Of a DNA stretch of 64,000 bases, positions 1 through 27,059 are shown piece by piece. This DNA comes from Escherichia phage vB_EcoM_LMP33, in the sequence record MK482689.1; one strand, given 5' to 3'. A model generated the notes under the pieces. That model did no database searches. It was not told where the DNA came from and worked only from the letters and a program-made list of their open reading frames with translations. Each line of letters starts with the position of its first letter. The first letter of the stretch is position 1. The translations under genes and the position numbers were made by a program.

Positions 1-1786
1 CAGAGACGACGTTAGTACCTTCTTCACAAATCCACACTGCCCTCATTGGTTCCCCATAGACAGCAGCACCAGACGGTACGTTTACAATACCATATTGTGT
101 CATACGTCCAGTTGAAGTACCAAACACCATTGCACCAGCACTAAGGCGACCATCAGGACGAATCTGGTTCAACCAACCTTTTTCATCATCCTTTGAGTTC
201 TCAATAGTTCTACGTCGGTGCATCAAAGTATAGTATTTAGCAATCTTCTGTCCAAGCTCGCCTTCAATCGTATCATAAGATGATTCAGTAAGTTTTGGTG
301 AAGTACGGATTAAGCAAGGCTCAAGCAAATCTGTGTACTTCTTCACAGACCAGTTATGCTCAATGTACTGGACACCTTCATGTTCAACATAACTCAAGCC
401 ACACCGTTCAACCATCTCCTGCCACTTAGGATGCTTTGTAATCATCTTTTTGTTGTCTTTGAAACGACAAACTTTGACAGGGCGACCATCTGAGTCTTTC
501 TTGTAGTTCCAGTCATCTGGAATCCAACCAACTGATTTCAAGTAGTCTTTAACAACTGCTACCTGAGTCATACGAGAAACTTCGAACTCAATTGGTGTAT
601 ATGGTGCATCAATCAAACCTGTATAGCGACTTGACTCAAGTTCAAAGTGGTTAACAACATGACTGTTGTAGTACTTCACAGTTTTGACTGTTTTTACTGG
701 CTTCCAGTCTTTGCATTTCTTACCAATCTTTGCATTCAACTCATTGCAAATTGCACGAGCATCCTTCATTGCTACAAAGCCTTCCTTGTACTCTTCACCA
801 GTTACAGAGTTGGTTGGTGTATAGCAATTTCTCTTTTCAATGTTAAAAATCTTTGTAGTTGGCTTACCAAATGGCTTGATTTCATATGTCTGCATCTCAC
901 CGTTACGTACCTGCTGACGGTACTTTGTCTTAGGGTACTTGGTAATTCTCTTCAGTCCATCTGCATGACCGAACGATTCAACATACTCATTCCAAGCTTT
1001 TGCAAACTCTTCTCCAGTGACTTTACCTTTAGTCTTAATAGTTGGAGGTAGATGTGGTTCAACCTCTGAAGCAAGCTCATTAGTCAACTTGTCAAGTTCC
1101 TTTACATGGAACTCCATAAGCTCTTTATCAGCTTTCCAGCCATTGATAGCTTGTTGACTCATCCAGAAAGATGTTTCTTTAGCTCGCATGTAGGTTTCAT
1201 AAGTGTCTATGCCACACTTCTTAAGCTTGAGATATTCATTATCAAGTGCCCGTTTAGTTTTGGCGTTAATACGGATATCTTCTACAACACGAGTGAAGAT
1301 TTCTGCATTCCACACACCCCAATGTTCAATCTCTGGTTTACGAACACCAACACGAGCACCCCATGCAGCCAAACCATGAGCACCTTTATAACCCTTTGGA
1401 GTTGGTCTATCCATCCACTGAACACGAGACTGGATAAGAGAATCCTGAAAGAAATTACTCCACGGTTTACACTTTGGATTATCAAAGTTCCATAAATCAG
1501 GTGCAATGTGATTGAAAACCCACCAGTCATAACCGAGGCCGTTATGGATGCAAAGTCGTTTTGCCTTTAACGCAAACTCAACACCTTCACGTAAACCACC
1601 CTTGATGTACTTAGTGTACTTGTGACCGAGGATAGGCTCATCTGTAAAGACCCATACAGGTGGCTCTTCATCGTCAGATTTATAGTCTGCGAAAGCCATT
1701 ACGTGCACTTTAGTGAACTCAAGGAGTAAACCATCAGTTTCTGTATCACCAACTAAATGTAAGTTTTTAAAATCTACGTTTTCCAT
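1..1786 (-). CDS. DNA polymerase, family A (T7 gp5-like), N-terminal exonuclease domain plus start of polymerase domain; partial, continues beyond window start
   Basis: Minus-strand ORF from ATG (plus-strand CAT at 1784-1786) with upstream GAGGGAG RBS and no stop before the window edge. Translation has DTETDG (Exo I), HNGLGYDWWVF (Exo II-like) and segments resembling T7 gp5 (GAHGLAAWGARVG; PDGRLSAGAMVFGTSTGRMT). Confidence 0.85.
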   Translation of the reverse strand, partial: MENVDFKNLHLVGDTETDGLLLEFTKVHVMAFADYKSDDEEPPVWVFTDEPILGHKYTKYIKGGLREGVEFALKAKRLCIHNGLGYDWWVFNHIAPDLWNFDNPKCKPWSNFFQDSLIQSRVQWMDRPTPKGYKGAHGLAAWGARVGVRKPEIEHWGVWNAEIFTRVVEDIRINAKTKRALDNEYLKLKKCGIDTYETYMRAKETSFWMSQQAINGWKADKELMEFHVKELDKLTNELASEVEPHLPPTIKTKGKVTGEEFAKAWNEYVESFGHADGLKRITKYPKTKYRQQVRNGEMQTYEIKPFGKPTTKIFNIEKRNCYTPTNSVTGEEYKEGFVAMKDARAICNELNAKIGKKCKDWKPVKTVKTVKYYNSHVVNHFELESSRYTGLIDAPYTPIEFEVSRMTQVAVVKDYLKSVGWIPDDWNYKKDSDGRPVKVCRFKDNKKMITKHPKWQEMVERCGLSYVEHEGVQYIEHNWSVKKYTDLLEPCLIRTSPKLTESSYDTIEGELGQKIAKYYTLMHRRRTIENSKDDEKGWLNQIRPDGRLSAGAMVFGTSTGRMTQYGIVNVPSGAAVYGEPMRAVWICEEGTNVVS

Positions 1787-1845
1787 TTTTACTCCCTCTA
1801 AAATCATTAACCTCATACATTACTGCAAAAAATTATAAAAAGCAA

Positions 1846-1871
1846 GTTGACAATGTACTTGACAAGGTGTT
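1846..1871. promoter_or_regulatory. conserved 24-bp dual-TTGACA motif (TTGACAATGTACTTGACAAGGTGT), copy 1
   Basis: In the divergent intergenic region between the DNA polymerase gene and the plus-strand cluster; near-identical copy at 47687-47710. Confidence 0.5.
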
Positions 1872-2466: not shown

Positions 2467-2467
2467 T

Positions 2468-3280
2468 ATGAATACTACTGTAGACCAGATGCTTGAAGAA
2501 AAAGGTATTGACGAAGCATTCTTAATCAATGCCGTAGAAAGCATGGCTATGATTCTTCGTGGAAACAACTACACAGAACAGTTTATGCCTGCAAGCTATA
2601 ACCTGCCTAAAGACAAGTCTGATAACGGTGCTTTTGCAGAACAGGTTAATATGATGCTGTGTGACAAAACACTTGCTTTAGCATCTATTGTTGTAGGTGT
2701 TGATGCTCTTGCAGAGTTCATTTTTTATGAGATGCAGAAAAATGACTATATTGCCATGACCTCTGAAGAAAAAGACTCGCTACTGCTCTTAGATAATAAT
2801 GAGCTAGTTGACCTGTTAATTTCGTCAACGAGTGCTGTTATGGCTGCTCTTGAGAAGCGAATGGAAGAGAAGCTGTCACGATATGAAAAGCTTGATTGGG
2901 GTGTAGAGGAATTAAACCCACGAATCAAAGAGATTATCCAGCAAACCAAAGATTCTCTAGAAGAAGCTGTGAAAGATGATTCTGTAGCTGATGTAGAACC
3001 ACTTCAGGTGAAAGTTGCATTGATGATTCCAGCCATCTCTACGATGATGAATATCGTTGCACTAATCCAGCTTTCACAGATGATGGGCACAAGCATTGAG
3101 TTCATTGAGAGTATGACTGGTGGTGTGAGTATGCAAGCAATCAATGATGTTCTGGTGAGCATTGGTGCTTCAATCATTGAAGAGAAGCTGCGCATTAACT
3201 TTGGTGATGATTTTGTGAAGCAAATCTCAGCTATGGCTGAAAAAGAGTATTCACAGACTAATACTGACCAACTGCACTAA
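2468..3280 (+). CDS. hypothetical protein
   Basis: 270-aa ORF tightly coupled to upstream ORF; followed by hairpin plus T-run terminator. Confidence 0.45.
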   Translation: MNTTVDQMLEEKGIDEAFLINAVESMAMILRGNNYTEQFMPASYNLPKDKSDNGAFAEQVNMMLCDKTLALASIVVGVDALAEFIFYEMQKNDYIAMTSEEKDSLLLLDNNELVDLLISSTSAVMAALEKRMEEKLSRYEKLDWGVEELNPRIKEIIQQTKDSLEEAVKDDSVADVEPLQVKVALMIPAISTMMNIVALIQLSQMMGTSIEFIESMTGGVSMQAINDVLVSIGASIIEEKLRINFGDDFVKQISAMAEKEYSQTNTDQLH

Positions 3281-3300
3281 GTCTTTATAAAAACTTACAA

Positions 3301-3342: not shown

Positions 3343-4086
3343 ATGAGTAATATTATCGCATTTACTGGAAAGGCGCGTTCTGGAAAAGACACCTCATGTT
3401 CTATTGTTAAGAATATTCTAGAAGATGAGTATGGCTACAATGTTGCAGTAATGGCCTATGCAGACAACCTTAAACTCTCTGCATCAAAGATATTTGACTT
3501 GACTTGGAATGACCTGTACGGTGAAACTAAAGAGACTCCACAGGTTTTTGATTTATCATACCCTGAACTGATGTTCAAAGTCACAGAAGCTATGGAGTTT
3601 ACTTTCAGAGGTGAACGTTATCATACGGACTTTAAACTTATGTCAGAGTTAACCGGACGACTGATTATGGAACTAAAGAAGGTTGCTAAACCAACTTTAT
3701 TAACACGTCTGGGGTTTAGTAAAAAGTATAAATTCTCATCAAGACAGGTTCAACAGATTTGGGGTACTGAAGTTATCCGTAAAGTTATGGGTGACAAATT
3801 CTGGGCTAAAGACCTCGAAAAACGAATGGCAAATTTCTTTGACGTTTGCTCACTTAAGAATCAATACGGTGTTGTTTTAATCAGTGACTTAAGGTTTGAC
3901 TCTGAAGCTGAGTGGCTGAGCAGATTTGCACACCAAACTATCGAAGTAAAAAGAGACAATGTGGATAAGGTTTCGTCACATGTTTCAGAAAATGGGATTT
4001 CTACCAAATATGCGCGTGACATTATTCATAATAATGGTACTCTTGCAGACCTTGAGAACAAGCTAAGAGCCATCATTAAAGTTTAA
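3343..4086 (+). CDS. deoxynucleoside monophosphate kinase (T4 gp1-like)
   Basis: N-terminal P-loop FTGKARSGKDT resembling T4 dNMP kinase SGVKRSGKDT; length about 247 aa; sits in the nucleotide-metabolism module. Confidence 0.55.
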   Translation: MSNIIAFTGKARSGKDTSCSIVKNILEDEYGYNVAVMAYADNLKLSASKIFDLTWNDLYGETKETPQVFDLSYPELMFKVTEAMEFTFRGERYHTDFKLMSELTGRLIMELKKVAKPTLLTRLGFSKKYKFSSRQVQQIWGTEVIRKVMGDKFWAKDLEKRMANFFDVCSLKNQYGVVLISDLRFDSEAEWLSRFAHQTIEVKRDNVDKVSSHVSENGISTKYARDIIHNNGTLADLENKLRAIIKV

Positions 4087-4094
4087 AAGAGAGA

Positions 4095-4295
4095 ATGAAG
4101 ATGAGAGTAAAAGACAATTTTAAAGTTATTGACCACCGTTTAGTGGAACTCTCATCTCTTTCCAATGAGGTAATGATTGAACGTCTTAAGAGAGTTGAAT
4201 CAAGAAGGAAAGAGATTGCAGATGAAATTCATGAACTGGACAAGATTGAAAATGGATTGAAGGCAGAACTACAACGAAGAGGTGCTAATGTCTAA
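4095..4295 (+). CDS. hypothetical small protein
   Basis: 66-aa charged ORF overlapping start of primase-helicase. Confidence 0.3.
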   Translation: MKMRVKDNFKVIDHRLVELSSLSNEVMIERLKRVESRRKEIADEIHELDKIENGLKAELQRRGANV

Positions 4296-6273
4296 AGGTC
4301 GTAAATTGAAAGAGGCTGGTCAGTTTGTTGGTCATTGCGCATGTCCACGTTGTGGTTCATCAGATGCTGGTTCAATCTATCATCATGACGATGGTTCTTA
4401 TTCAATGACTTGCTTTAGTTGTAACAAAGGTTTCCCAGAGTGGGATTTTGATAAAGGACAAATCGTGAGCACTTATTCTACTGGTTCAGACAATAAAAAC
4501 CGTACTTTCCGTGGAATGGATTTAGACGATGTGAAAGAAAACCTTGAAGCAATGGACTTAAAGGACAGGAAGATTCCTGCAAAAGTTCTTGAGCGTTTGG
4601 GTATCAAGGTTGACATTGACAGTGATGGTGAAATTGACGCGCATTTCTACCCAACTTACAAACGCAATGAAGATGGCAAGCTAGAGCATGTTGGCTACCG
4701 TGTTCGTCACCGTTACCCAGAAGACCATCCAAAAGAGCACCTACGAGGTAAGTTAAAAGACTTTTCTGGTGGTGTTGGAGACATTAAAGGTGAACTGGCA
4801 ATGTTCGGTTCATGGATTGCTCCAGAAGGTGGTAACCGTCTATTCATCTGGGAAGGTGAGATGGAATGTGCGACAGCAATCTATATGACTTCTCTTGCGA
4901 TTAAGGACAAATCTCGTCGTAAGAATTACTGTCACGTATCTGTTCCATCAGGTGCAAACATCAAGTCTATCAAAGATAACTATCAGTACATTACATCATT
5001 TGATGAGATTTACTTGTGCTTTGATAACGATGAAGCAGGTGCTAAAGCCACTAAAGAGGCTGCTGGTATCCTACCTATTGAGAAGGTTCGTTTATTCCAG
5101 TATCCAGAAGGCGTAAAAGACCTTAACGAGTGGTGGACAAAGTTCTATAAAGAGAAAGATACAGTTCTGGAAGGATTTAAGCAGCGTATCTACAATGCAC
5201 CTCGTTACTGTCCTGCTGGTATCAAGAACTTTGCAGATGGTTTTGAGGCAATGAAGAATCGTGGTCAGATTCCATTGATTCCTTTCCCAGAATCTTTCGG
5301 AGATTTGAACAGGCTGACTTATGGTGGTTACGGTTTAGGTGAGATTACAACTATTGCAGCACCATCTTCAGTAGGTAAGTCAGCTTACACTCGTGAGATG
5401 ATTTACTCAGCTTGGAAAGAAACTGATTATAATATCGGTGTAATTCCTGTAGAAGATACCTATGAAGAGTTGATGGAGATGCTCTGTGCAATCCACCTGA
5501 GCAAGCAGATTTCTGAGATTCCTTATGATGAACGGGATTGGGATGAATTAAAAGGAGCACACGCAGAACTATCTAAAGGCCGTCGTATCCATATCGTTGA
5601 CCATCAAGGGGCAATTGACCAAGATAACCTGCTAGAGTTTGTTGACTATCTTGTTAACAGTTTAGACTGTAAGATTATCATTCTTGACCCTATCACGTTA
5701 GCCCTGTCACGTTCTGATACGGATGAAGAAGAAGTTTTGTCTGAGCTATTGCGTCGTTGCAAACGCTACCAGTATGCGCAGGTAAACGTATGTCACGTTC
5801 GTAAGAGTGCAGGTGGTCAGAAAGCTAACTCTGAAGGTGGAGATATCTCTGAAGAGGATATCAAAGGTTCTGGTGCGTATTTTCAGATTTCTATGAATAA
5901 CATTCTGTTAATGCGTAACAAGGTTGACCCAGACCCAGTTAAGAAAAACTTGACAAAAATCAAGTTAACTAAGTGTCGTCGTCATGGTAAGTCAACTGGT
6001 ATTGCTGGTCATACTTGGTACAATCCAGATACAGGACGTCTCATCAAAGCATCTGGTTGTGGAGTTGACATTGATGGTGCAGCAGAAAACATTCGCCAGC
6101 AGTTTGGTATTGGTGAAGCTGAAGACCATTATGATGACTCTTTGCCACATTATGAGGATGAAGTGTTTGACCGTGAGACTGGTGAAGTCTATACTGAAGA
6201 GCAGCGTCAAAGCTCAACGATTCCACCTGTATTAAGTGAGGATGCAGATGACTGCCCGTTCGAAACTGAGTGA
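4282..6273 (+). CDS. DNA primase-helicase (T7 gp4-like: zinc finger + TOPRIM + DnaB-like helicase)
   Basis: N-terminal CxxC..CxxC zinc ribbon (CACPRCG...CFSCNKG), TOPRIM-like EGEMECATA and FDNDEAG, Walker A GLGEITTIAAPSSVGKSAYT in the helicase domain. Confidence 0.85.
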   Translation: MLMSKGRKLKEAGQFVGHCACPRCGSSDAGSIYHHDDGSYSMTCFSCNKGFPEWDFDKGQIVSTYSTGSDNKNRTFRGMDLDDVKENLEAMDLKDRKIPAKVLERLGIKVDIDSDGEIDAHFYPTYKRNEDGKLEHVGYRVRHRYPEDHPKEHLRGKLKDFSGGVGDIKGELAMFGSWIAPEGGNRLFIWEGEMECATAIYMTSLAIKDKSRRKNYCHVSVPSGANIKSIKDNYQYITSFDEIYLCFDNDEAGAKATKEAAGILPIEKVRLFQYPEGVKDLNEWWTKFYKEKDTVLEGFKQRIYNAPRYCPAGIKNFADGFEAMKNRGQIPLIPFPESFGDLNRLTYGGYGLGEITTIAAPSSVGKSAYTREMIYSAWKETDYNIGVIPVEDTYEELMEMLCAIHLSKQISEIPYDERDWDELKGAHAELSKGRRIHIVDHQGAIDQDNLLEFVDYLVNSLDCKIIILDPITLALSRSDTDEEEVLSELLRRCKRYQYAQVNVCHVRKSAGGQKANSEGGDISEEDIKGSGAYFQISMNNILLMRNKVDPDPVKKNLTKIKLTKCRRHGKSTGIAGHTWYNPDTGRLIKASGCGVDIDGAAENIRQQFGIGEAEDHYDDSLPHYEDEVFDRETGEVYTEEQRQSSTIPPVLSEDADDCPFETE

Positions 6274-6747: not shown

Positions 6748-7605
6748 ATGTCTAAAGTTGTTAAAATGAAAGCTCCGGTAGAGAAGTACAACGGTACTGA
6801 ACGTCAAACTCTGCGTTACCTTCTGAAAGATGTCTGGTTTTATTACCTGAACACTTCACCACGTCCGGGAAAAGGCAAGTCCATTGATAAGAAATTCCCA
6901 GGCAAAGACTGTAACTACAGCGTTTCAATTCTGGCAGAAGATGGTAACAAGCTGTTTAAAGAGTTTACTAAGTCTAAGAAAAACCCAGAAGGTTGGGATA
7001 AAGTTACCACTGAAGCAGTTGATGCAGATGACTTCGAAGAGAAGTTTGGTTGCAAACCACCATTTGAAGCAGACACTTACTACATCTTGAAAGTAAGTCG
7101 TGCAGCAGCTTATAAAGATGGTGCTGTATGGACAGCTAAACAGTCATTCCCTGTAATGCTGATTGAAGAAGTAAATGGTAAGCGTGTAGCTGTTAAGCAG
7201 CCGATGAAGAAAATCAAAGCTCAAGCATCTGACAAACATGAAGATGATAAGAACTATGATGTAATTCATCCAGATATTGCAGTTGGTAACGGTTCTTTTG
7301 GTAGTGTGATTCTTTCTACTCACTTCTACACTTTTGAGAACAATGTCTTGACAAAGCCTATTCAGGAACAGTTTATCATTGATACTCTTGTACCTTACAC
7401 TGGTGGTAACGGTGCTAACGGTGAACCTGAACTGGATGAAGATGAACTGGCTATGCTTGGTCTTGATGGTGTCGAAGATAACGGTGAAATCACTGAAGAA
7501 GACGCAACAGACCATAAATCTTCGAATGATTCTGATGATGGTGACGATGAAGACTTGCCAGACCCAGATGACGAAGAAGATGAAGACTTCGATACAGAAG
7601 ACTAA
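6748..7605 (+). CDS. single-stranded DNA-binding protein (T7 gp2.5-like, acidic C-terminal tail)
   Basis: 285-aa ORF ending in a strongly acidic tail (DDGDDEDLPDPDDEEDEDFDTED) with aromatic residue; located between primase-helicase and exonuclease as in T7-like replication modules. Confidence 0.5.
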   Translation: MSKVVKMKAPVEKYNGTERQTLRYLLKDVWFYYLNTSPRPGKGKSIDKKFPGKDCNYSVSILAEDGNKLFKEFTKSKKNPEGWDKVTTEAVDADDFEEKFGCKPPFEADTYYILKVSRAAAYKDGAVWTAKQSFPVMLIEEVNGKRVAVKQPMKKIKAQASDKHEDDKNYDVIHPDIAVGNGSFGSVILSTHFYTFENNVLTKPIQEQFIIDTLVPYTGGNGANGEPELDEDELAMLGLDGVEDNGEITEEDATDHKSSNDSDDGDDEDLPDPDDEEDEDFDTED

Positions 7606-7667: not shown

Positions 7668-8708
7668 ATGGAGAAGTACACATTAACAAAGCTTCCCGAT
7701 TCAGTTACACATGTCTTTATTGACTCTGACAGCATTGCCTATAAAGGTGCTTGTGTAGTTGAGAAAGCAAAGTATAAATACGTTAATAAGCTCACAGCAG
7801 AAGAATCTGAATCATTTGATAATGCAAAAGATGCTGCAAGATGGTTAGCAGACCAGAGAATCCTTGTAGAAGAGCTTGGCCTAGCATTTGATGAAGATGA
7901 ATGGGAAAGACAGACTTGGAAAGAAGCTAAGAGTGAAAAAGAAGCTATCATGGCTACTCAGCAGGTTCTTCAGGAATGGCTTAAGGTTGTTGGTAAAGAA
8001 AGAACTTGGGTAGGTTATTTAACAGAGAAGGGTGTGCATAAACATAAAGATGTGAAAGGTCTTGAGCACCAATATCAAGGTAACCGTAAAGATGCTGTCA
8101 CACCAACACATTTAGTCGCTTGTCGTGAGTATCTTCTGTCAAGACCAGAGTTCAAACTCTTAAAGGGAGGATTCGAAGCCGATTCAATTGTAATTGCTAA
8201 AGCTGAAAAGATGGGTAAGAAGGCTGCTCTCATGAGTATTGACAAAGACCTTCGACAAGCTGAAGGGACTTATTGTATTGATATGACTTATGAAAAGTCA
8301 CCACTAATTTTTATTGCTGATAATAATGTTGGTGATATCTGGGATTGTCCTATCAAATCAAAACCAAAAGCTGCAAAAACAGTTGGTGTAGGTTTTAAAT
8401 TTTTGTGTTATCAGGCTGTTGCTGGAGATAATGCAGACAACTACTTCGGCCTTAAAGGTGCTGGTAAAGTAGCTGTGATGAATGCTTTAGAGGGTAAAGA
8501 GACCTATAAAGAGTGTCTTGATGCTATCTATGAACTCTATGCTAAAAAAGACTCTTACACCTATGTATCATGGGATGGACAGACTGTTACCAAAACACCA
8601 TTAGAGTTAATGGAACAGCATTTCTGGATAGCATATCAAGAGAGAAATCCAAAAGACAATTTCTCTTTCAAGAAATATAATTGGGAGCCGTGTATGAATG
8701 AAGATTAA
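7668..8708 (+). CDS. 5'-3' exonuclease (T7 gp6-like)
   Basis: Segments resembling T7 gene 6 exonuclease (MSIDKDLRQ cf. ISCDKDFKT; YQAVAGDNADNYFGLKGAG cf. FQTIKGDITDGYSGIAGWG). Confidence 0.6.
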   Translation: MEKYTLTKLPDSVTHVFIDSDSIAYKGACVVEKAKYKYVNKLTAEESESFDNAKDAARWLADQRILVEELGLAFDEDEWERQTWKEAKSEKEAIMATQQVLQEWLKVVGKERTWVGYLTEKGVHKHKDVKGLEHQYQGNRKDAVTPTHLVACREYLLSRPEFKLLKGGFEADSIVIAKAEKMGKKAALMSIDKDLRQAEGTYCIDMTYEKSPLIFIADNNVGDIWDCPIKSKPKAAKTVGVGFKFLCYQAVAGDNADNYFGLKGAGKVAVMNALEGKETYKECLDAIYELYAKKDSYTYVSWDGQTVTKTPLELMEQHFWIAYQERNPKDNFSFKKYNWEPCMNED

Positions 8709-9195
8709 AGGATTTGGCAATTGCCCTACCTACGGTCATTGGGTATCTTTATGTGGGGAAGTTGACCCCACTAAACATTTTGGCTTTGTCTATTTAGTGC
8801 ACTGTAAGAAGACTGGACAATATTATATCGGAAAGAAACAGCTTAACAGTGTGACAAAAAGAAAAGTTGCTGGGAAGACTCGGAAGAAGGTAGTCACTAA
8901 GGAGAGTGATTGGATGACTTACGAAACCTCTTCTGAGTATATTAAAAAAGATATTGAAAGCTTTGGAAAAGAATCTTTTGATTTTTACATTATTCAAACC
9001 TACTACACAAAAGGTGGTCTAGTCTATGGTGAAGCAAACCTTCAACATAAATTCGATGTAATGACAAAAAGGATTGACTCGAAGCTCAGGCTCTTCTACA
9101 ATGCCAATATTGCAGCAATTAAGTTTATTACTAAAGAAACTTATGAAGATGCTGAAAAAAGAATCCATAAGGTAATGAAAGCAAACTGTGCTTGA
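8698..9195 (+). CDS. GIY-YIG-like nuclease domain protein (putative)
   Basis: FGFVYLVHCKKTGQYYIGKK resembles the GIY-(x10)-YIG motif; basic stretch downstream. Confidence 0.3.
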   Translation: MKIKGFGNCPTYGHWVSLCGEVDPTKHFGFVYLVHCKKTGQYYIGKKQLNSVTKRKVAGKTRKKVVTKESDWMTYETSSEYIKKDIESFGKESFDFYIIQTYYTKGGLVYGEANLQHKFDVMTKRIDSKLRLFYNANIAAIKFITKETYEDAEKRIHKVMKANCA

Positions 9196-9201: not shown

Positions 9202-9465
9202 TTGAGAGAGAATAAAATGTTTAACAAAAGTAAAGCTGTGAGTCATGTAGCAAAAGTTGACAGCAAGATTGAAGAACTTGAGCGCATTCTTGCAAATGCC
9301 AGAGAGTCAATAATTAAAGAGGTTGAAGCTGTTGAATCTCAAATGCAGCACCTAATGCTTAAACGTCAAGAGCTACGTGAACATCTGGAATATATTGAAA
9401 CACGAGAGCTAAAGGTTAACAGATATTTTAAGGAGTCCAAATGTTTAACTCAAGAGAATCAGTAA
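9202..9465 (+). CDS. hypothetical coiled-coil protein
   Basis: 87-aa charged, helical-looking ORF. Confidence 0.3.
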   Translation: MRENKMFNKSKAVSHVAKVDSKIEELERILANARESIIKEVEAVESQMQHLMLKRQELREHLEYIETRELKVNRYFKESKCLTQENQ

Positions 9466-10196
9466 AAAACTGGAATCTTCGTTGTGGAAACACTCAAAAG
9501 CAACCTTACAGTGATGAGTATTGGGAGTCTTTGAAATCTCAATCTCTATGTATGCTTGAAGAAGCAAAAGAGCTTGTAAAAGCAATTGAAGAGAAAGACC
9601 CCATTGAGACACTGGATGCTCAGGCAGATTTGCAATATGTTCTTGACGGTCTGATTTATCTGTCACAGCATGACCACAATGGCGCTATGGAAGCCGTTTG
9701 CCATAATAATGACCTGAAGTACACAGACGACTATGAAGAAGCTTTAAAACGTCTTGCAGATATTGAGAAGCGTACTGGTCAAGAGTGTATCATCAGAATG
9801 TCAGTAGTTGATGGTAAAGAGTGGTATGCAATTGTTCGCGCAGCCGATGGGAAGGTTATGAAGCAATCTAATCTCCCTAAAGTTCAGCTTGGTGAATACA
9901 TTGTAGAACTTGAAAGCCAAGAACTTTTTGTGGTAGTATCTGACACATGCGTTATCTGCAAAGGTATTGTATGTAGCTTAAAGGATTTGGGTGTAGATGG
10001 TTTTGTAGAAGTTAATCCAATTACCTCTAAAGCAGATAAAGACTTCTGTAAAGAGAATGGACTATGGATTGCAGATATTGTCTACTATGATGGTGAGCAG
10101 TTCCATGTAACCTCATACCCGAAACTGAATTATGATGCTAATAACCTGAAGTGCTGGTTAAAAGGGGTTGGTTATAATGGATTCACAGAACATTAA
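9441..10196 (+). CDS. MazG-like nucleotide pyrophosphohydrolase domain protein (putative)
   Basis: N-terminal EEAKELVKAIEEKDPIETLDAQADLQYVLDGL matches the EExxE..D..E..D helix pattern of MazG/HisE-type NTP pyrophosphohydrolases. Confidence 0.4.
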   Translation: MFNSRESVKNWNLRCGNTQKQPYSDEYWESLKSQSLCMLEEAKELVKAIEEKDPIETLDAQADLQYVLDGLIYLSQHDHNGAMEAVCHNNDLKYTDDYEEALKRLADIEKRTGQECIIRMSVVDGKEWYAIVRAADGKVMKQSNLPKVQLGEYIVELESQELFVVVSDTCVICKGIVCSLKDLGVDGFVEVNPITSKADKDFCKENGLWIADIVYYDGEQFHVTSYPKLNYDANNLKCWLKGVGYNGFTEH

Positions 10197-14493: not shown

Positions 14494-14735
14494 TGACTTA
14501 TGTAATTTACTCCAAAACTGGATGCCCTCAGTGTGAGACTGCAAAGAATTTTGCAAAAGCTCGTGGTATTGACCATGTTGTGAGAATGTTAGGGCAGGAC
14601 TATGAACTATCAGACCTGATGGATATTGCACAGATGCCAGTTCGTCAGATGCCATTCATCATGAAAACTGATGGACAAAACCTAAAACCTGTTGGAACGC
14701 TACAGAATTTTATGGCAGAGGTGAATAATGCTTAA
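14493..14735 (+). CDS. glutaredoxin-like protein (NrdH/thioredoxin fold, CPQC)
   Basis: 80 aa with redox motif TGCPQCETAK; translationally coupled to nrdB. Confidence 0.7.
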   Translation: MTYVIYSKTGCPQCETAKNFAKARGIDHVVRMLGQDYELSDLMDIAQMPVRQMPFIMKTDGQNLKPVGTLQNFMAEVNNA

Positions 14736-14934
14736 ACGCCTTTGGGAAGGTCTGGTTGTTGATGCACCAGCCATTGTGATTGGTATGCTTGTTGTTAACC
14801 TATTTACTGATTTTGAACAAGGTTCATTGTTTGGAGCCATGTTACTATGGGTTATCTTTGAAATATTAGAGATACAGTTAGGCATCACTGAAAAACTGAG
14901 AAAACTCGTTTCTAAGTTTTCTAAAAAGATTTAA
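14728..14934 (+). CDS. small membrane protein (hypothetical)
   Basis: 68 aa with two hydrophobic helices. Confidence 0.3.
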   Translation: MLKRLWEGLVVDAPAIVIGMLVVNLFTDFEQGSLFGAMLLWVIFEILEIQLGITEKLRKLVSKFSKKI

Positions 14935-17127: not shown

Positions 17128-17189
17128 AACTTGACATGGTGGTGTGAGTCTTGATAGGCTTACATCACCTTTTTTATTGGATGTTAGAT

Positions 17190-17306
17190 ATGGCAGAGAG
17201 TATTATTGGGTTGTTCATAGGTTCTGTCTTACTAGGGTTCTTTTTAGGACTCTCTTATTGTGAATTGAAAGGTAAGTTAAAATGTTTAAGATATCAAAAG
17301 CGTTGA
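17190..17306 (+). CDS. small hydrophobic peptide (38 aa), hypothetical
   Basis: MAESIIGLFIGSVLLGFFLGLSYCELKGKLKCLRYQKR; single transmembrane helix; between nrdD and nrdG. Confidence 0.2.
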   Translation: MAESIIGLFIGSVLLGFFLGLSYCELKGKLKCLRYQKR

Positions 17307-17482
17307 TATACATACTCCATATTCTAGTCTTCTTCTTTGGGGTTAGTGTTATGGTATGGGGTTTTTCAGACCCACAATGGAGTTTCTCATATCATGGTCA
17401 GATGGATTTATGGTCATGCTTCAAACCATTTTTAGGGTTAGTCATAGCATTCAGTGCATTACCAACTAAGGTGAAATTATGA
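17282..17482 (+). CDS. small membrane protein (hypothetical)
   Basis: 66 aa, two predicted TM helices. Confidence 0.3.
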   Translation: MFKISKALIYILHILVFFFGVSVMVWGFSDPQWSFSYHGQMDLWSCFKPFLGLVIAFSALPTKVKL

Positions 17483-17874
17483 TTAAGTTGAGCCAAAAAC
17501 AGTTAGAGTGGATTAAAGATTATGCCTCAGAGTGTGGCTCTTGTGAAAAGAATCACGTAAGATACTCAACATTCCACACGGTCTTCACATTGTATATCGG
17601 CGACAATGTTCTAAGTGATTCTGTAGAAGATGGTGTAGCATTGCCTAATGAATTGCTTGACAAATTAGCTGTAGTCACTGGAACTTGGTCTGAAGAAGAT
17701 GGTCACGAACTATCTGATGATGTTGTCTTCTACAGTCTTGAAAACATCATGAATCCAGAGTACATTATGCTAATGACTTGCGCACAAGATTGTGTACCAT
17801 TACAAAACTTCATTAAAGAGCACTGTGAAGAATTTATTACTAAACAGGTTCCTTGTCAGGTGGTGTTTGAATGA
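17479..17874 (+). CDS. hypothetical protein (Cys-rich N-terminus)
   Basis: 131-aa ORF, coupled to neighbours. Confidence 0.35.
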   Translation: MIKLSQKQLEWIKDYASECGSCEKNHVRYSTFHTVFTLYIGDNVLSDSVEDGVALPNELLDKLAVVTGTWSEEDGHELSDDVVFYSLENIMNPEYIMLMTCAQDCVPLQNFIKEHCEEFITKQVPCQVVFE

Positions 17875-18170
17875 GTAAAACAATTCGAAGAAAAGGTTTA
17901 AAGAACGTTCATGGACTCTATGAGTGGAGAAATGAGGTACGTAACAGAGAAAATGCTTCAGATGTCTACTTCCATTCTGATATGATGTCCAGAAAAGGTG
18001 GCTCTTATGACTTTACAAGTCAACCTTGTAGGGAGATTAAGAAGGCTACTAAACGTCTTACAAGAACACAAATCAGGCAGCTTTCTAAGACATCCTTCTT
18101 AGATGAAGACTTTGACATTGATAGCAAGTCTCCAAAGAAAGCCGCTAAGAACACTTATATGTATTGGTGA
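17871..18170 (+). CDS. hypothetical basic protein
   Basis: 99-aa ORF. Confidence 0.3.
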   Translation: MSKTIRRKGLKNVHGLYEWRNEVRNRENASDVYFHSDMMSRKGGSYDFTSQPCREIKKATKRLTRTQIRQLSKTSFLDEDFDIDSKSPKKAAKNTYMYW

Positions 18171-18179
18171 GGTAACTAG

Positions 18180-18665
18180 ATGAATTACATGGAGATTCGA
18201 CCATTTGACACAGCTAATGGTGAAGGGGTTCGTGTAAGCCTCTTCGTAGCTGGTTGTAAGCATCACTGCGAAGGCTGCTTTAACAGGGAGTCTTGGAAGT
18301 TTAATGCTGGTAAAGTGTTCACTTATGCAAACCTATATGGAATCATCCAGTTAATGGGTGACGATGCTGTCAGTGGGTTGTCAATACTTGGTGGAGAACC
18401 TCTGGATGATAGAAATATTCAAGAGGTTACCAATATATGTAAACGTATTAAAACTGTTTACCCAGAGAAGTCTATCTGGCTCTGGACAGGTTTTCAGTTA
18501 CACGAAAAAATTCACCTAGATGTAATGAAATATGTTGACGTGGTGATTGATGGTAAGTATGATTCATCTAAACCAACAGTTAAACCGTATCGTGGTTCTG
18601 ATAACCAAAACCTCTGGAGAAAAGAGTATGGGTGGCAAGGTGATTGTCAGTGGCGAGCCGAGTAA
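18180..18665 (+). CDS. nrdG: anaerobic ribonucleotide reductase activating protein (radical SAM)
   Basis: N-terminal FDTANGEGVRVSLFVAGCKHHCEGC (CxxxCxxC-type cluster site) as in NrdG; downstream of nrdD. Confidence 0.8.
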   Translation: MNYMEIRPFDTANGEGVRVSLFVAGCKHHCEGCFNRESWKFNAGKVFTYANLYGIIQLMGDDAVSGLSILGGEPLDDRNIQEVTNICKRIKTVYPEKSIWLWTGFQLHEKIHLDVMKYVDVVIDGKYDSSKPTVKPYRGSDNQNLWRKEYGWQGDCQWRAE

Positions 18666-20208: not shown

Positions 20209-21101
20209 GAGAGAAAACTATGAAAACATCTATCCGTGTTACAGTTCATTCACCAACTAAAGGAACTCATGAAGAAGAGTTTAACATCATCCAATTTCCT
20301 TCTGGTGAGATTGGTGGGCACTTTTCGCCAGAGTTTGTTGATTTCACTGCTTATGCAGCATCATCCATCAACAATGTGATTATGATTGTAAAAGGTTATG
20401 ATAAGGATACATTGTTTGCTGTGGCACTTGCTAAAGAAGCAATTGATGATTTAATTCCTCATGATTATGCTTTAAAGACTGTCATCTTTTACTACTTACC
20501 AAATGCACGTTATGACCGTCACATGTTTAAAGGCGACGCAGCAGCTTTAAAGGTTTTTGCTAAACAGGTAAATGCAATGGGATTTGGTGCAGTCTGTGCA
20601 GTTGACCCTCACAGTTACGTTCCAGATAACCTGTTTAACTGCTTCCAGAGTATTCCTCAAAAGGAGATTGCAGTTCACTACGCAAATGACCCACTGATTG
20701 ATTACTTAGTAGCCCCAGATGCAGGTGCTGCTAAGAAGATTGCAGAGACTGCTAAAGAGGTGGATAAACCATACATCACAATGTCTAAGGTGCGTAACCT
20801 TAAGACTGGTGAAATTACTGGTATGCGAATCCTTGACGATGTTGATTTGACAGATAAAACTGTCATGATTCTGGATGATATTTGTGATGGAGGTCGAACC
20901 TTCATAGAAGCAGCCAAACATCTTCGTGAAGCAGGTGCAAAACGTGTGGAACTCTATGTAACTCATGGTATTTTCTCTAAAGATGTTGAAAACTTGCTTG
21001 ACAATGGTATTGACCATATCTACACTACAAACTCTTTAGGGGAAGCTAAAGACCGTGGCTTAACACATTATAGCCAAGTTACTGTAGCAAACCTTGATTA
21101 A
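20205..21101 (+). CDS. ribose-phosphate pyrophosphokinase-like protein (PRPP synthetase family; possible ADP-ribose pyrophosphokinase)
   Basis: 298 aa with a PRTase-type nucleotide-binding motif VMILDDICDGGRTF; directly upstream of a NAMPT-like gene. Confidence 0.6.
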   Translation: MREKTMKTSIRVTVHSPTKGTHEEEFNIIQFPSGEIGGHFSPEFVDFTAYAASSINNVIMIVKGYDKDTLFAVALAKEAIDDLIPHDYALKTVIFYYLPNARYDRHMFKGDAAALKVFAKQVNAMGFGAVCAVDPHSYVPDNLFNCFQSIPQKEIAVHYANDPLIDYLVAPDAGAAKKIAETAKEVDKPYITMSKVRNLKTGEITGMRILDDVDLTDKTVMILDDICDGGRTFIEAAKHLREAGAKRVELYVTHGIFSKDVENLLDNGIDHIYTTNSLGEAKDRGLTHYSQVTVANLD

Positions 21102-21146: not shown

Positions 21147-22928
21147 ATGACTAAATCACTTTATGCAGTACCAGCAGGTTTAAATGCAGATGCTTACAAA
21201 TCTGGTCATGTTTACCAGTATCCTAGCGCAACAGAGTACTTGATGTTCAATCTGACACCACGTAGCGACAAATGGTTTAACAGCCCCTTAGCAATTGACG
21301 GTGTAGTGGCTTTTGGTATTCAACGTTTTGTTAAAGATTACTTGATAGACCACTGGAATGCCACTTTCTTTGAACGTGATAAAAAAGAAGCCATTGATGA
21401 AATCTTAGAAGTCATGAATGGTGTTCTGGGTAAAGATGCTATCGGTCGAGAGCATTGGGAAGCACTTCACGACTTAGGTTATCTACCAGTTGAAGTATAC
21501 GCTGTAGAAGAAGGCACAGTTGTTCCAATGCGTGTCCCGATGATTGTCTTTCAGAACACTGTTTCAGGTTTTCATTGGGTAGCAGGTTATCTGGAAGATG
21601 CTTTCTCTGCTGAAATTTGGAAGGCTTGCACCATTGCAACTATTGCATTGCATTACAAACGCATCTGTAAGAAGTGGGCTGACCTTACTTGTGACAATGA
21701 CTTACATTTACCTTATCAGTGCCATGATTTTGCTATGCGTGGTATGTCCGGCTTTACTGATGACGCATTTAACGCTGTAGGTCACTTAACCAGCTTTAAA
21801 GGGACTGATAGCTTCCCTGCTGTATACACGGCTAAACGAATCTATGGACAGTCCTACCCAATCTCTGATATTGGTAGTTCTGTACCAGCCACTGAGCACT
21901 CTGTAATGTGTGCAAACATTGCTTGGGAAGGTGGTAATGAGTTGATTGAAGAAGAAAGACGCTTTAAAGGTGAGTTACAAACCTTCCGTCGTTTCTTAAC
22001 AGAAACTTACCCAACAGGTATTGCAAGCATTGTTTCAGACACTTATAACTTCTGGAGAACTGTGTCAGAAATTTTACCAGCACTCCGTAAAGAAATTATG
22101 GAACGTGATGGCAAACTGGTAATTCGTCCTGACTCTGGAGACCCTGTACATATTGTCACAGGTTATAAAGCAATCCACTTAGAATGTGCTAAGAAGGCTT
22201 ATTACGAGCACCTAAGCAAGCTGGAAGCCAGTGACACAATGTTGAATGCTGTTCTTAACATGAAGCTTGAAAACATCAACTATGGTATTGCTGGATGGCT
22301 ACTGTCAGAAGGCTACGAAATGGTTGTTGATAGAGAAGACTTTGAAGTTGCTGACACAGTGATGTTGAAGAACGCTTATATGGTTGGCTCTGCAAACGTT
22401 GTAACACGCCCTGTAGCAGAGATTGATGGAGCTATTAAGACCTTGTATAACATCTTTGGAGGAACTATCAACTCTAAAGGTTTTAAGGTACTGGATGAGC
22501 ACATTGGCCTTATCTATGGCGACTCTATCACGTTGGAACGTGCAAACGAAATCCTGAAGCGCCTGTATGAAATGGGTTTTGCAAGCTCTAACGTAGTGTT
22601 TGGCGTAGGCTCTTACACTTACCAGTACATGACTCGTGACACCTTTGCATTTGCTGTCAAAGCAACCCTTGCAAGCATTGGTGGTAAAGAGATTATGCTT
22701 GCAAAAGACCCTAAAACAGATAGTGGTGTTAAGAAGTCTGCTTTTGGTGGTGTAGCACCTATGTGGGATGGTGAAAATCTGAAAGCTGTAGATGGCTATG
22801 GGTTCCAGAGCTTTGCAGATGCACTTGAACATCCAGCTTGTGCTTTACGTCTAGTCTTTAGTGACTCTGAGCAGTTCGGCTACACAACTCTTGGTGATAT
22901 TCGAAATAATATTGACAAGCAGCTTTAA
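21147..22928 (+). CDS. nicotinamide phosphoribosyltransferase-like protein (NadV/NAMPT family)
   Basis: 593 aa; N-terminus NADAYKSGHVYQYP resembles the NAMPT TDSYKxxHxxQYP signature; length fits. Confidence 0.65.
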   Translation: MTKSLYAVPAGLNADAYKSGHVYQYPSATEYLMFNLTPRSDKWFNSPLAIDGVVAFGIQRFVKDYLIDHWNATFFERDKKEAIDEILEVMNGVLGKDAIGREHWEALHDLGYLPVEVYAVEEGTVVPMRVPMIVFQNTVSGFHWVAGYLEDAFSAEIWKACTIATIALHYKRICKKWADLTCDNDLHLPYQCHDFAMRGMSGFTDDAFNAVGHLTSFKGTDSFPAVYTAKRIYGQSYPISDIGSSVPATEHSVMCANIAWEGGNELIEEERRFKGELQTFRRFLTETYPTGIASIVSDTYNFWRTVSEILPALRKEIMERDGKLVIRPDSGDPVHIVTGYKAIHLECAKKAYYEHLSKLEASDTMLNAVLNMKLENINYGIAGWLLSEGYEMVVDREDFEVADTVMLKNAYMVGSANVVTRPVAEIDGAIKTLYNIFGGTINSKGFKVLDEHIGLIYGDSITLERANEILKRLYEMGFASSNVVFGVGSYTYQYMTRDTFAFAVKATLASIGGKEIMLAKDPKTDSGVKKSAFGGVAPMWDGENLKAVDGYGFQSFADALEHPACALRLVFSDSEQFGYTTLGDIRNNIDKQL

Positions 22929-23503: not shown

Positions 23504-25870
23504 ATGCGCATGGTAAATGACCACGCAGAAGTGATTAAGAGTTCAACTTCTTTAGAGACGTCTCAAGCACAGATTACAATGACACCTGAAATGTTCAGCC
23601 TTTTGAGTTCTGGTGTATATACCTTTAAAGAAAGGGCAGTGATTCGTGAACTGTCATGTAACGCAGTAGATGCTCAGAAAGAAGCTGGAAAAGAGAATAT
23701 CCCGTTCCATGTGCATTTACCTACTCGTTTTGAACCTTACTTTGAAGTCCGTGATTTTGGAACTGGATTGACTCATGATAAAGTTATGAGTTTGTACCTA
23801 AACTACGGGGCTTCTACGAAGAATGACTCTAATGACTACATTGGTGCAATGGGTATCGGCTCAAAATCTCCATTTGCAATTGCTCAGTCATTCACAGTGT
23901 CTAGCTATGTTGACGGTGTTGTTAATAAGTACTCTGTTTATCTTGAGAATGGTATCCCTCAAGTAACTAAGCTTACCACTAACCCAACAAAAGAACCTAA
24001 TGGTTTAGCTGTACGTGTGGCAGTTGCTGACCACCGTATTTCAAAGTTCTTTGAAGAGGCTGGTAATGTATACTCATACTTTGCTGTAAAACCAGAGAGT
24101 AATGTGGAGTATAATGATATATTAGCAGATATGGATGTGATTGCTCGTGAAGAAGGTGTCTATGATGCCATGACTCATAAGCATAGCTGGCGTTCAAGCA
24201 GCAATAGAACAGAGTTTAACGTGGTTATGGGTAATATTGCCTACCCAGTTAATATGGAGGCATTACTTGGTGATGATTTCTTCAAAGTATTACCAGAATT
24301 TTTCCGCAGGAGCGTAGACCTTGTAAACATCTACATGCCTATTGGTTCAGTTGCTATTGCAGCTTCTCGTGAAGCATTGCAGATGAATGACACGACAAAA
24401 AATGTTATCATTGAGGCTACTAAAAAGATAACTGAAGCCATTACAAAGGATGTTATCAAGAAAGTTAATAGCCAACCTACACTCATGGATGCTGCACAGG
24501 CTTATGCTGAGTTACGTTTGAACTCACGAGAGATGTTTAATGCTGTGTGTCCAAAGCTAGAGTGGGGTGGTGTTAAGCTTGATTCTCTGGAAGAAGAATT
24601 ACTAAACATTCGTCGTGGAATTATCTACGCAGAAGACGGCTCAGTCATTTATGAACGTGACGGTAAAGGTAATATTAAGGTTGATAGGAACGGGAACAAT
24701 ATACCTAAAGTAGATTATCTTTATGACCCAGTTGCTTATGTCAAGTTCAACTCTTTAGAGAGTAAGATTCGTGCAACATCGCTTTCCTACACTCAAGAGG
24801 CAAGTATGTTCAATATCTTTGGCGCAATGCGTAAAAGCCAAATTGAACAGTTTTTGTTTGTTATAAATGACCGTCGCAATAAAAATGGTACTGAGAAAAC
24901 TGTAGGACGCAATCAAATCTTGCGTGGTGCATGTCGAGACTATGCCAGTGAGTCTAGTCTGTTTCACAGATACAATGGTATTGTCTTTGTATTCTCGACT
25001 GAAAAAGAGTTAGACGACCTAATCAATCTGCACAAACTTGATAAAAGCTTGTTAAAGATTGTGAAGATGTCTGATAAGGAACACCATTATCAGCGTAAAG
25101 AAGCTGTAAGAGGTGTTGTAAAACTCTGGAAAGCTGTTCCAGCAGAAGGTGTAGCTTCCTATAAAGAGGTTTCAGAGGACTTTGATACAATTGAAGAACC
25201 TCAGCTTTACATTAAGGCAGTTGGTGACACAGTTGATGGCGAATGTTTTTGCTCATCTCCAGAAGATGTAGCTAAGTCAGTTGCTAATGTTACAGGTAAG
25301 ACAGTCTATGTTTTCCGAAAAGCAAATTGGAAAAAGATACCAGAAGACTGGATTGAAGTAGATGAGAAGCTCTTGAACGACAGCTTAACTGATGTTCATT
25401 GGATTAATCATAACAGGTATATGACACGTATCTATATGAATGGTGTCCTCGACCTTACAAGCAGTTGGATTATTGCCAGAAACTTTACGTTCAATAACAG
25501 GAAGATTTCTCGTGGCTATTGTTATTCACGGGATACAAACAAAACTATCTTCTTAGAAGGCAATGAAGATGCTGTAGAGGCAATGTTTGGTAAAATCCAA
25601 TACGTTGCTGCACCGTTTGCATATACTTACACTATTAGTAGGTTGCAAACTTTGAAAGACTGCCTTGACAATGATACAAAGCTGTACAAGAAAATTAAGA
25701 AAGCTGGTGACCGTATGGTCATTAAGGTGACAAACTACCTTTCAAAAAGAAAACAAGAAAACTTCTTGCTTTCTCATTTAGATTGGAATAAAGTGTCACC
25801 CATCGAAGTGAGTAAGTTCTTAGGCTTTGATGTGAAGTGTGTTCCAGAAGGGACTACAATTTACGATTAA
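23504..25870 (+). CDS. rIIA: rIIA-like protein (GHKL/Bergerat-type ATPase N-terminal domain)
   Basis: 788 aa immediately upstream of a clear rIIB homolog; N-terminal region has GHKL-like motifs (ELSCNAVDA; RDFGTGLT; GAMGIGSKS). Confidence 0.6.
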   Translation: MRMVNDHAEVIKSSTSLETSQAQITMTPEMFSLLSSGVYTFKERAVIRELSCNAVDAQKEAGKENIPFHVHLPTRFEPYFEVRDFGTGLTHDKVMSLYLNYGASTKNDSNDYIGAMGIGSKSPFAIAQSFTVSSYVDGVVNKYSVYLENGIPQVTKLTTNPTKEPNGLAVRVAVADHRISKFFEEAGNVYSYFAVKPESNVEYNDILADMDVIAREEGVYDAMTHKHSWRSSSNRTEFNVVMGNIAYPVNMEALLGDDFFKVLPEFFRRSVDLVNIYMPIGSVAIAASREALQMNDTTKNVIIEATKKITEAITKDVIKKVNSQPTLMDAAQAYAELRLNSREMFNAVCPKLEWGGVKLDSLEEELLNIRRGIIYAEDGSVIYERDGKGNIKVDRNGNNIPKVDYLYDPVAYVKFNSLESKIRATSLSYTQEASMFNIFGAMRKSQIEQFLFVINDRRNKNGTEKTVGRNQILRGACRDYASESSLFHRYNGIVFVFSTEKELDDLINLHKLDKSLLKIVKMSDKEHHYQRKEAVRGVVKLWKAVPAEGVASYKEVSEDFDTIEEPQLYIKAVGDTVDGECFCSSPEDVAKSVANVTGKTVYVFRKANWKKIPEDWIEVDEKLLNDSLTDVHWINHNRYMTRIYMNGVLDLTSSWIIARNFTFNNRKISRGYCYSRDTNKTIFLEGNEDAVEAMFGKIQYVAAPFAYTYTISRLQTLKDCLDNDTKLYKKIKKAGDRMVIKVTNYLSKRKQENFLLSHLDWNKVSPIEVSKFLGFDVKCVPEGTTIYD

Positions 25871-25949
25871 AGTGTTTGACAAGGGGCTTCAAAGCCCCTT
25901 AGAATAGCATTACAAAATGATTTATTAACTAACAAGAGAGAGTAATAAG

Positions 25950-27059
25950 ATGACTACTAAAACTAAAGCACAGATTGACGCAGAAATTTACGAACTGGTT
26001 AAAGAAGGTAAGCTGACTAAAACAGCTATCGCACAGAAGTTCAATACTTCAACCCGTTCAGTTGGTCGTGCTGTAGAGCGTCATGAAGCAACCTTAAAAG
26101 GTAAGAAAAAGGCAACTTCTAAGCCAGCTAAGAAGACCCTAAAGCAAGTTGCTAAGTCAGTTAAAAAGAAAACTGGCAAACCAGTTGAAAAGGTTGTTAA
26201 AGAGGCTGTACAGAAAGCTCCAGTAAATAAACTGCATGAAGCTATGCAGAAAGATGACAAGATTGAGTACATGATTACTGGTGACTCTGTAATTATGACT
26301 TACGGTTCAGAGTCTGAAATTGTTGAATCTACTCATCCGAACTATCAAGAGATTGTAGTTCATGTTGTGAAAGGTGAGTTTAAGAAAGCCTTTGAACTGA
26401 TGAACATTCGTAAGTCTATCGAAAACTTCACTCAGGGTGCTATCACAATCAAAGGTGACAAGCTATTCTACGGTGCTGTTGAGATGCGTTCTACTCTGGT
26501 TGACCGTATTCTTCACATGATGAAAACTGGCGATAAAGGTTTTGAACGACTTGTAATGTTCTTCGAAAAACTGATGGAAAACCCATCTAAAGATTCTGTA
26601 GAACAACTTTGGGGATTTGTATCTCACCTTGATGTTGAGATTGATGAAGAAGGCTACATCATTGGTTGGAAGAAAGTCTCTACTCGTGAAGGCAAGCTGG
26701 TTGACTCTCACACCTACAAAGTGCCTAATGATTTGGGTAACATTGTAGAAATGCCACGTTGGATGGTTGATAATAACCGTAACGTAACTTGCTCTCAAGG
26801 TCTTCATGTTGGTGCTTGGGATTATGTTCGTTGCTTCTCAGGTGATACAATCCTGAAGGTTCGCGTACATCCACGAGATGTTGTATCTGTTCCAACTGAT
26901 TACAACGATATGAAGATGCGTTCCTCTCGTTATGAAGTTGCAGCAATCGTTGATAATCAACGTAAAGTGCTGGAAGCATGGGACGGTAAGACTGAAGCTT
27001 TGCATGTCATCGTTGGCACTGCTGGTGAACTCATCTCTCAACGTAAACGTGAAATCTAA
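25950..27059 (+). CDS. rIIB: rIIB-like protein
   Basis: Strong resemblance to T4 rIIB as recalled from memory (GLHVGAWDYVRCFSG...VRVHPRDVVSVPTDYNDMKMRSSRYEV cf. T4 VKVHPRDVVSIPIDYNDAKMRTCQYEV). Confidence 0.7.
   Translation: MTTKTKAQIDAEIYELVKEGKLTKTAIAQKFNTSTRSVGRAVERHEATLKGKKKATSKPAKKTLKQVAKSVKKKTGKPVEKVVKEAVQKAPVNKLHEAMQKDDKIEYMITGDSVIMTYGSESEIVESTHPNYQEIVVHVVKGEFKKAFELMNIRKSIENFTQGAITIKGDKLFYGAVEMRSTLVDRILHMMKTGDKGFERLVMFFEKLMENPSKDSVEQLWGFVSHLDVEIDEEGYIIGWKKVSTREGKLVDSHTYKVPNDLGNIVEMPRWMVDNNRNVTCSQGLHVGAWDYVRCFSGDTILKVRVHPRDVVSVPTDYNDMKMRSSRYEVAAIVDNQRKVLEAWDGKTEALHVIVGTAGELISQRKREI

Follow-up and report, generated by a model that had tools for sequence, protein, structure and literature searches.

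The stretch analysed here, 64,000 nucleotides of one strand of Escherichia phage vB_EcoM_LMP33 (sequence record MK482689.1; "the window" throughout), carries in positions 1-27059 a series of genes for DNA replication, nucleotide metabolism and NAD metabolism, followed by homologues of rIIA and rIIB. A first-pass annotation had read this segment as an unusual mosaic, in which T7-like replisome genes were combined with features of much larger T4- or T5-type phages. The segment is almost certainly a Felixounavirus's conserved set of genes for DNA replication and nucleotide metabolism, and its gene combination ancestral, not a recent mosaic. All genes of the window whose coordinates are given below lie on the forward strand, except the DNA polymerase gene.

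Replisome genes

Three replisome genes were recognized by their similarity to characterized proteins of phage T7, as the first-pass annotation had proposed. The family A DNA polymerase gene (1-1816, minus strand; phrog_17, E 1.2e-68) was cut by the window start, leaving the N-terminal 605 codons. The full-length protein of the close relative LMP25 (909 amino acids) contained both the Pol A catalytic and the 3'-5' exonuclease domains: PF00476 scored 57.8 bits (cut-off 34.3), and the best match among solved structures was T7 gp5 (E 1e-10). The BLASTP alignment of the polymerase with T7 gp5 (22% identity, E 2e-13) covered the exonuclease and polymerase blocks, including the exonuclease motif DTETDG.

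A T7 gp4-type bifunctional primase/helicase (4288-6273) was identified by BLASTP, PDB and Pfam. A Cys4 zinc motif (CPRC...CFSC) aligning with the T7 motif, a TOPRIM domain (Toprim_2, PF13155) and a C-terminal helicase domain of the RecA/DnaB type (DnaB_C, PF03796) were all found in one polypeptide, which aligned with T7 gp4A along nearly the whole of its length (28% identity, E 4e-45, BLASTP) and matched solved T7 gp4 structures over residues 149-592 (PDB 6n7i, E 1.6e-40). The third gene (7668-8708) probably encodes a 5'-3' exonuclease of the T7 gp6 / FEN type: homology to the PIN-like nuclease and H3TH domains was supported by phrog_107 (E 1.2e-63) and by 21% identity to T7 gp6 over 221 amino acids (E 4e-6, BLASTP), but the Pfam matches fell below their cut-offs. 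Between the helicase and exonuclease genes, an open reading frame (ORF) of 285 amino acids (6748-7605) very probably encodes a protein of the gp2.5 family that binds single-stranded DNA (an ssDNA-binding protein, SSB), and is treated separately below.

Genes for nucleotide and NAD metabolism, and rIIA/rIIB

Two ribonucleotide reductases of different classes were encoded in the segment. The aerobic class Ia enzyme was represented by the large subunit NrdA (10875-13109; PF02867, the barrel domain, E 7.3e-91, and PF00317; 100% amino-acid identity to Felix O1) and the small subunit NrdB (13420-14493; PF00268, E 1.9e-34), followed by a glutaredoxin with a CPQC motif (14493-14735; PF00462, E 4.4e-7). 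The anaerobic class III enzyme comprised NrdD (14983-17127; PF13597, E 4.9e-114), with ATP-cone and glycyl-radical domains and the glycyl-radical motif RVCGY at residue 684, and its radical-SAM activase NrdG (18180-18665; PF13353, E 1.6e-42), with the cysteine motif CKHHCEGC (CxxxCxxC). Other genes of nucleotide and NAD metabolism were those for a deoxynucleotide monophosphate (dNMP) kinase (3343-4086; PF21448, E 6.9e-21), a MazG-like nucleotide pyrophosphohydrolase (9441-10196; PF01503, E 6.7e-6, and RefSeq annotation), a ribose-phosphate pyrophosphokinase (Prs, 20220-21101; PF00156 and PF14572) and a nicotinamide phosphoribosyltransferase (NadV, 21147-22928; PF04095, E 6.8e-35).

The last two genes of the segment were adjacent homologues of T4 rIIA and rIIB (23504-27059), proteins which in T4 counter prophage-encoded exclusion. 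rIIA (23504-25870; phrog_612, E 6.8e-190) aligned with T4 rIIA over the N-terminal 300 amino acids only (31% identity, E 9e-37), and rIIB (25950-27059; phrog_609, E 2.2e-89) showed 37% identity to T4 rIIB (E 2e-60). The presence of rIIA/rIIB, NrdAB with glutaredoxin, NrdDG and dNMP kinase was thus borne out by T4 matches, Pfam domains and motifs, and by the annotations of LMP25 and of the RefSeq record of typing phage 1.

Relatives and genus placement

Positions 1-25000 of the window were compared by megablast with a database of 50,697 phage records. The top two matches, the Escherichia phages vB_EcoM_LMP25 (LMP25; MK482688) and vB_EcoM_LMP34, were 100% identical across all 25 kb. In total 278 records were matched, 208 of them over 80% or more of the query, and nearly all of the remaining matches were Escherichia, Salmonella and Shigella phages of Felixounavirus. 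The taxonomy given in the LMP25 record is Caudoviricetes; Ounavirinae; Felixounavirus. The window runs as the reverse complement of that record and spans its ends, and so comes from a differently permuted or circularised version. A terminal repeat of 127 bp is present at the LMP25 record's ends, at about 40717-40843 of the window.

Felix O1 aligned with 98.9% of positions 1-27059 at 93.8% nucleotide identity, and with 95% of the whole window at 94% identity (local blastn), that is, a similarity of about 89% when expressed as aligned fraction times identity. Members of a genus share at least 70% nucleotide similarity under the rules of the International Committee on Taxonomy of Viruses (ICTV), and the values found here were about 89% with Felix O1 (64 kb) and 100% with LMP25 (25 kb). 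By the ICTV thresholds the phage would belong to the same genus as Felix O1 and to a different species.

Gene content and order were also shared with the Salmonella phage Felix O1, the type species. Thirty-five of the 36 ORFs of 1-27059 were collinear in Felix O1, with 83-100% amino-acid identity (local tblastn), the sole ORF without a counterpart being one of 99 amino acids before nrdG. The Felix O1 annotation lists the genes in the same order and even names two of them "4A" and "6". The tRNA array and the terminase-capsid block were collinear with Felix O1 as well, and the order dNMP kinase, primase/helicase, 285-residue ORF, exonuclease and GIY-YIG protein was kept in two other genera, Kolesnikvirus and Suspvirus. 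The identities of the genes, their homology and their conservation throughout the genus were shown, and no evidence contradicting the genus assignment was met.

The evidence has a few weaker places. The window start cuts off part of the polymerase gene, the catalytic C-terminal third lying outside; the exonuclease matched the Pfam families 5_3_exonuc_N (E 0.1) and 5_3_exonuc (E 0.03) in the right order but below the cut-offs; and the window covers 64 kb of a genome of about 88 kb, so that about 24 kb lie outside.

Several stretches of 190-820 nucleotides within 31726-37726 (for example 35380-36201) were unaligned to Felix O1, and correspond to strain-variable accessory ORFs among small early genes. 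A region of 689 nucleotides (40723-41411), by the junction of the LMP25 record ends, was also without Felix O1 counterpart. The sign of the GC skew switches near 40 kb, at the change in the orientation of the genes. The position of the tail sheath gene is beyond the window end.

Age of the gene combination

The replisome proteins have their best characterized homologues in T7 and the rIIA/rIIB proteins theirs in T4, as would be expected of a mosaic specific to this phage in which recent recombination had placed a T7-like replication cassette in a genome of the T4 or T5 type, or the other way round. Against such a recent hybrid, identities to the T7 and T4 proteins were only 21-37%, which points to ancient divergence; the same arrangement recurred in over 200 genomes and across three Ounavirinae genera; and no compositional boundary was seen, the G+C content being 0.377-0.408 with a positive GC skew over 2-30 kb. 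The recent hybrid is very improbable, and was refuted by the conservation of the arrangement in Felix O1 and its relatives. The chance that contigs from two phages had been joined during assembly is smaller still, and practically negligible: the one thing in its favour was the mixed "flavour" of the homologues that are known best, whereas independent isolates from many laboratories had the identical gene order, and alignments with Felix O1 ran unbroken for 8-11 kb across all putative junctions. This chimera was rejected on conservation and composition. The uniform composition, together with identities of only 21-37% to T7 and T4, indicates that the combination is ancient and neither a recent recombinant nor an assembly artefact.

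Nor are rIIB and gp4-type helicases confined to T4- or T7-type phages, both being widespread in unrelated phage groups: homologues of rIIB were found in 2910 phage records with genomes of 71-595 kb, and gp4-type primase/helicases in 2878 records, many of them from myoviruses of 80-235 kb. Seen over deep evolutionary time, T7-like replisome genes are indeed combined in the module with genes that were first found in T4.

This combination was already known. The genome paper of Felix O1 described its polymerase and primase/helicase as having their greatest similarity to the proteins of T7/SP6-like podoviruses (Whichard et al. 2010, PMC3185647); it also lists reductases of both kinds, aerobic and anaerobic, along with Prs, NadV, dNMP kinase, 5'-exonuclease, rIIA/rIIB and 22 tRNAs. 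The idea of an unusual mosaic was accordingly abandoned: the window is 100% identical over 25 kb to a classified Felixounavirus, is collinear with Felix O1, and so has its place well within a genus already described in detail and sharing these genes, the very outcome that the first-pass annotation had named as refuting its reading; the combination was published in 2010 and found in hundreds of genomes. The finding restates the canonical Felix O1-like gene set and has little discovery weight, its value being practical, in annotation. What is new is modest, namely the SSB annotation and a tail motif shared by the SSB and the helicase.

A gp2.5-family ssDNA-binding protein

The product of 6748-7605 is "hypothetical" in six records (LMP25, typing phage 1, Felix O1, REP7, warpig and a Kolesnikvirus), and the main text of a survey of remote Gp2.5 homologues (PMC2896510) makes no mention of Felix O1. 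The proposal that the segment encodes a gp2.5-like SSB was supported by profile and fold comparisons, and not by direct sequence search.

A profile built from close homologues was compared with 1.84 billion representative proteins and gave 64 matches, most of them 200-245 amino acids long. An enlarged alignment of 55 sequences was made up of 51 of these matches, the window protein and three close homologues. Six of the sequences matched PF21265 (SBB_T7, SSB of phage T7) and five PF10991 (Enc34 ssDNA-binding protein, DUF2815). By hhalign, the enlarged alignment matched T7 gp2.5 with a probability of 95.2% (E 2.7e-8), whereas the shallow alignment alone had reached 22%. The first AlphaFold model, from 10 close homologues, was poor, with a predicted local distance difference test score (pLDDT) of 51, and its Foldseek search gave noise; both were discarded, and the 55-sequence alignment was used instead. 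The second model (AF2) had a pLDDT of 86, with a core above 90. The nine best PDB fold matches to it in Foldseek were all from the gp2.5 family (4klk, 5odj/k/l, 1je5 and 4jg2; probability 0.97-1.0), those that followed had probabilities below 0.1, and the named fold matches among viral models were ssDNA-binding or helix-destabilising proteins.

Several results weigh against this assignment. The 285-residue protein showed no BLASTP similarity to T7 gp2.5, no PDB sequence match by phmmer, and no Pfam match even at E 10, PF21265 and PF10991 included; the template-modelling scores (TM-scores) of the gp2.5-family fold matches were modest (0.39-0.53); and the alignment used for the second model already held members of the gp2.5 family. 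The missing direct similarity, the "hypothetical" label in six records and the poor first model would also suit an unrelated acidic protein, for example a host-takeover factor or a DNA mimic. This alternative is unlikely: members of PF21265 and PF10991 were found among the profile matches, the hhalign probability and the top nine PDB folds pointed to gp2.5, the named viral fold matches were SSBs, and the gene is placed between those for the helicase and the exonuclease. Nearly all of the distant family matches, moreover, ended in an acidic tail whose last residue, or one close to it, was Phe or Trp (...DDIPF, ...DDW), a hallmark of SSBs. The 285-residue protein is very probably a gp2.5-family SSB as judged from profiles and a predicted fold, the assignment falling short of certainty because of the modest TM-scores and of an alignment that already contained family members. 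For this product, which is conserved in Ounavirinae, the label gp2.5-family SSB can accordingly replace "hypothetical protein".

Acidic C-terminal tails of the helicase and the SSB

The C-terminal ends of the helicase (4288-6273) and of the putative SSB (6748-7605) were compared with each other and with the relative loci L012 (2483-5356) and L013 (4226-7541). In the window, as in Felixounavirus, the helicase ended in ...DDCPFETE and the SSB in ...DEEDEDFDTED, in which F281 was invariant in 10 homologues. The two tails varied in parallel between genera: they were ...CPFETD and ...EDFDTED in Suspvirus, and ...DDDIPFRTE and ...DDDVPFKTE in Kolesnikvirus, the conserved Phe coming before x-T-E(D). 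The helicase and SSB of T7 likewise end in acidic tails with a Phe (...NDTDF for gp4 and ...DGDF for gp2.5), though the Phe is the last residue in T7 and precedes x-T-E(D) here.

The tails of T7 gp4 and gp2.5 bind the polymerase, and those described here probably dock on the polymerase in the same way, a proposal against which it must be said that it is drawn purely from analogy with T7. That both tails match and change together between genera suggests a T7-like competition: the tails of the Ounavirinae helicase and SSB may vie for a single docking site on the polymerase, so that a T7-like mechanism would be at work in a myovirus of 88 kb, through a tail motif distinct from the terminal Phe of T7. 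We hold this extension tentatively, as slightly short of an even prospect. The matching tails provide a testable hypothesis on replisome coupling in a phage group which is used therapeutically.

The spacer between nrdD and nrdG, and an intron site in nrdD

Small membrane ORFs had been proposed between nrdD and nrdG, a description which held for one of them. The 66-residue product of 17282-17482 was clearly hydrophobic (Kyte-Doolittle 2.53; phrog_11929, "membrane protein"), but the next two looked soluble: an acidic, Cys-rich protein of 131 amino acids without any hydrophobic segment (17479-17874; phrog_4382), and a basic protein of 99 amino acids with weak similarity to DUF5499 (17871-18170; phrog_1774; PF17603, E 2.7e-4, below the cut-off). 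An annotated ORF of 39 amino acids in the spacer was dubious. A further hydrophobic ORF, of 68 amino acids, lay between the glutaredoxin gene and nrdD (14728-14934; maximum 19-residue Kyte-Doolittle value of 2.12), and is a "hypothetical membrane protein" in the Felix O1 annotation.

The spacer (17128-18179) was variable among Felixounaviruses. In Felix O1 the 99-residue ORF was missing, with just 14 amino acids retained, and extra HNH genes were present nearby; REP7 had a different ORF, of 112 amino acids; and in warpig a homing-endonuclease ORF directly followed nrdD. The nrdD gene of REP7 was itself split by a group I intron of about 316 nucleotides (REP7 16043-16424; Rfam RF00028, 53.6 bits), at a site corresponding to about 16179/16180 of the window, where the allele was intron-less and the exon sequence near the site more diverged. 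From these comparisons, the spacer ORFs are best taken as what a hotspot for mobile and accessory genes holds at this locus, and not as a working component of the reductase operon.

Other genes of the segment and the tRNA array

Two further genes lay between those for the polymerase and the dNMP kinase. One encoded a conserved hypothetical protein of 140 amino acids (2044-2466; phrog_4039), with 100% amino-acid identity in Felix O1. The other (2468-3280; phrog_4251) encoded a protein of 270 amino acids carrying the database label "minor tail protein", which looks doubtful because no Pfam match supported it; the gene also lies inside the replication module. Downstream of the exonuclease gene, a protein of 165 amino acids (8698-9195) resembled SegE-type GIY-YIG endonucleases (PF19835, E 4.9e-28). 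It is annotated as "NAD synthetase" in the Felix O1 RefSeq record, typing phage 1, REP7 and a Kolesnikvirus, probably a propagated misannotation. Another mobile insertion in the replication module was an HNH endonuclease gene directly downstream of the DNA polymerase gene, present in LMP25 (1564-2076, just outside the window start) and Felix O1 and absent in typing phage 1.

The large tRNA set attributed to the genome was found, with 25 genes by ARAGORN and 24 by Rfam, but at 49871-54946, outside positions 1-27059. The array was collinear with that of Felix O1. Rfam gave a weak extra tRNA-like match (51605-51683, 31.7 bits) not called by ARAGORN, the ARAGORN tRNA-Met (50126-50202) and tRNA-Tyr (50433-50520) were below the Rfam threshold, and the tRNA Tyr and His genes are flagged as pseudo in GenBank.

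Proposed working of the block

Biochemical activities and physiological roles can be proposed by analogy with the characterized homologues. A minimal replisome of the T7 style, consisting of the family A polymerase, the gp4-type hexameric primase-helicase, the gp2.5-type SSB and the gp6/FEN-type exonuclease, would copy the genome of about 88 kb, the 5'-3' exonuclease putatively acting in primer removal and recombination. Deoxynucleoside triphosphates (dNTPs) would be supplied aerobically by the class Ia NrdAB with glutaredoxin, and anaerobically by the class III NrdD with its activase NrdG, and the two reductases would let the genome be replicated in the gut under oxic as well as anoxic conditions. 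The dNMP kinase and MazG may shape the nucleotide pool and so aid dNTP supply; Prs and NadV would provide phosphoribosyl pyrophosphate and NAD+ salvage; and rIIA/rIIB, widespread in virulent phages, may act as early proteins.

Comparison with phages T7, T4 and Felix O1

The replisome shares homologous components with that of T7: a family A polymerase, a primase-helicase with zinc-finger, TOPRIM and RecA-type domains, an SSB with a predicted gp2.5-type OB fold, and a putative FEN-type exonuclease. Identities are only 21-28%, however, the polymerase is longer (909 vs. 704 amino acids), and the genes are not in the T7 order. Unlike T7, the phage is presumably an 88-kb myovirus using the host RNA polymerase.

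The replisome is not of the T4 type, and no homologues of gp43, gp41, gp61 or gp32 were seen among the annotated LMP25 genes. The likeness to T4 lies in other genes: NrdAB, NrdDG and the gp1 dNMP kinase are homologous proteins, with reductases of the same classes, though nrdD and nrdB are intron-free in the window, in contrast to T4. rIIA aligns with its T4 counterpart in the N-terminal GHKL-like part, the C-terminal two-thirds being not alignable.

The closest known systems are those of LMP25, identical over the 25 kb compared, and of Felix O1, which has the same gene order and content (ORF96-131 plus ORF1-2), the same tRNA array and the same G+C content of 39%. There are differences from Felix O1: its HNH endonuclease insertions (ORF106, ORF122 and ORF128) are missing from this phage, which has the extra 99-residue DUF5499-like ORF before nrdG, and about 5% of the window is unaligned to Felix O1, mostly among small early genes (31.7-37.7 kb and 40.7-41.4 kb).

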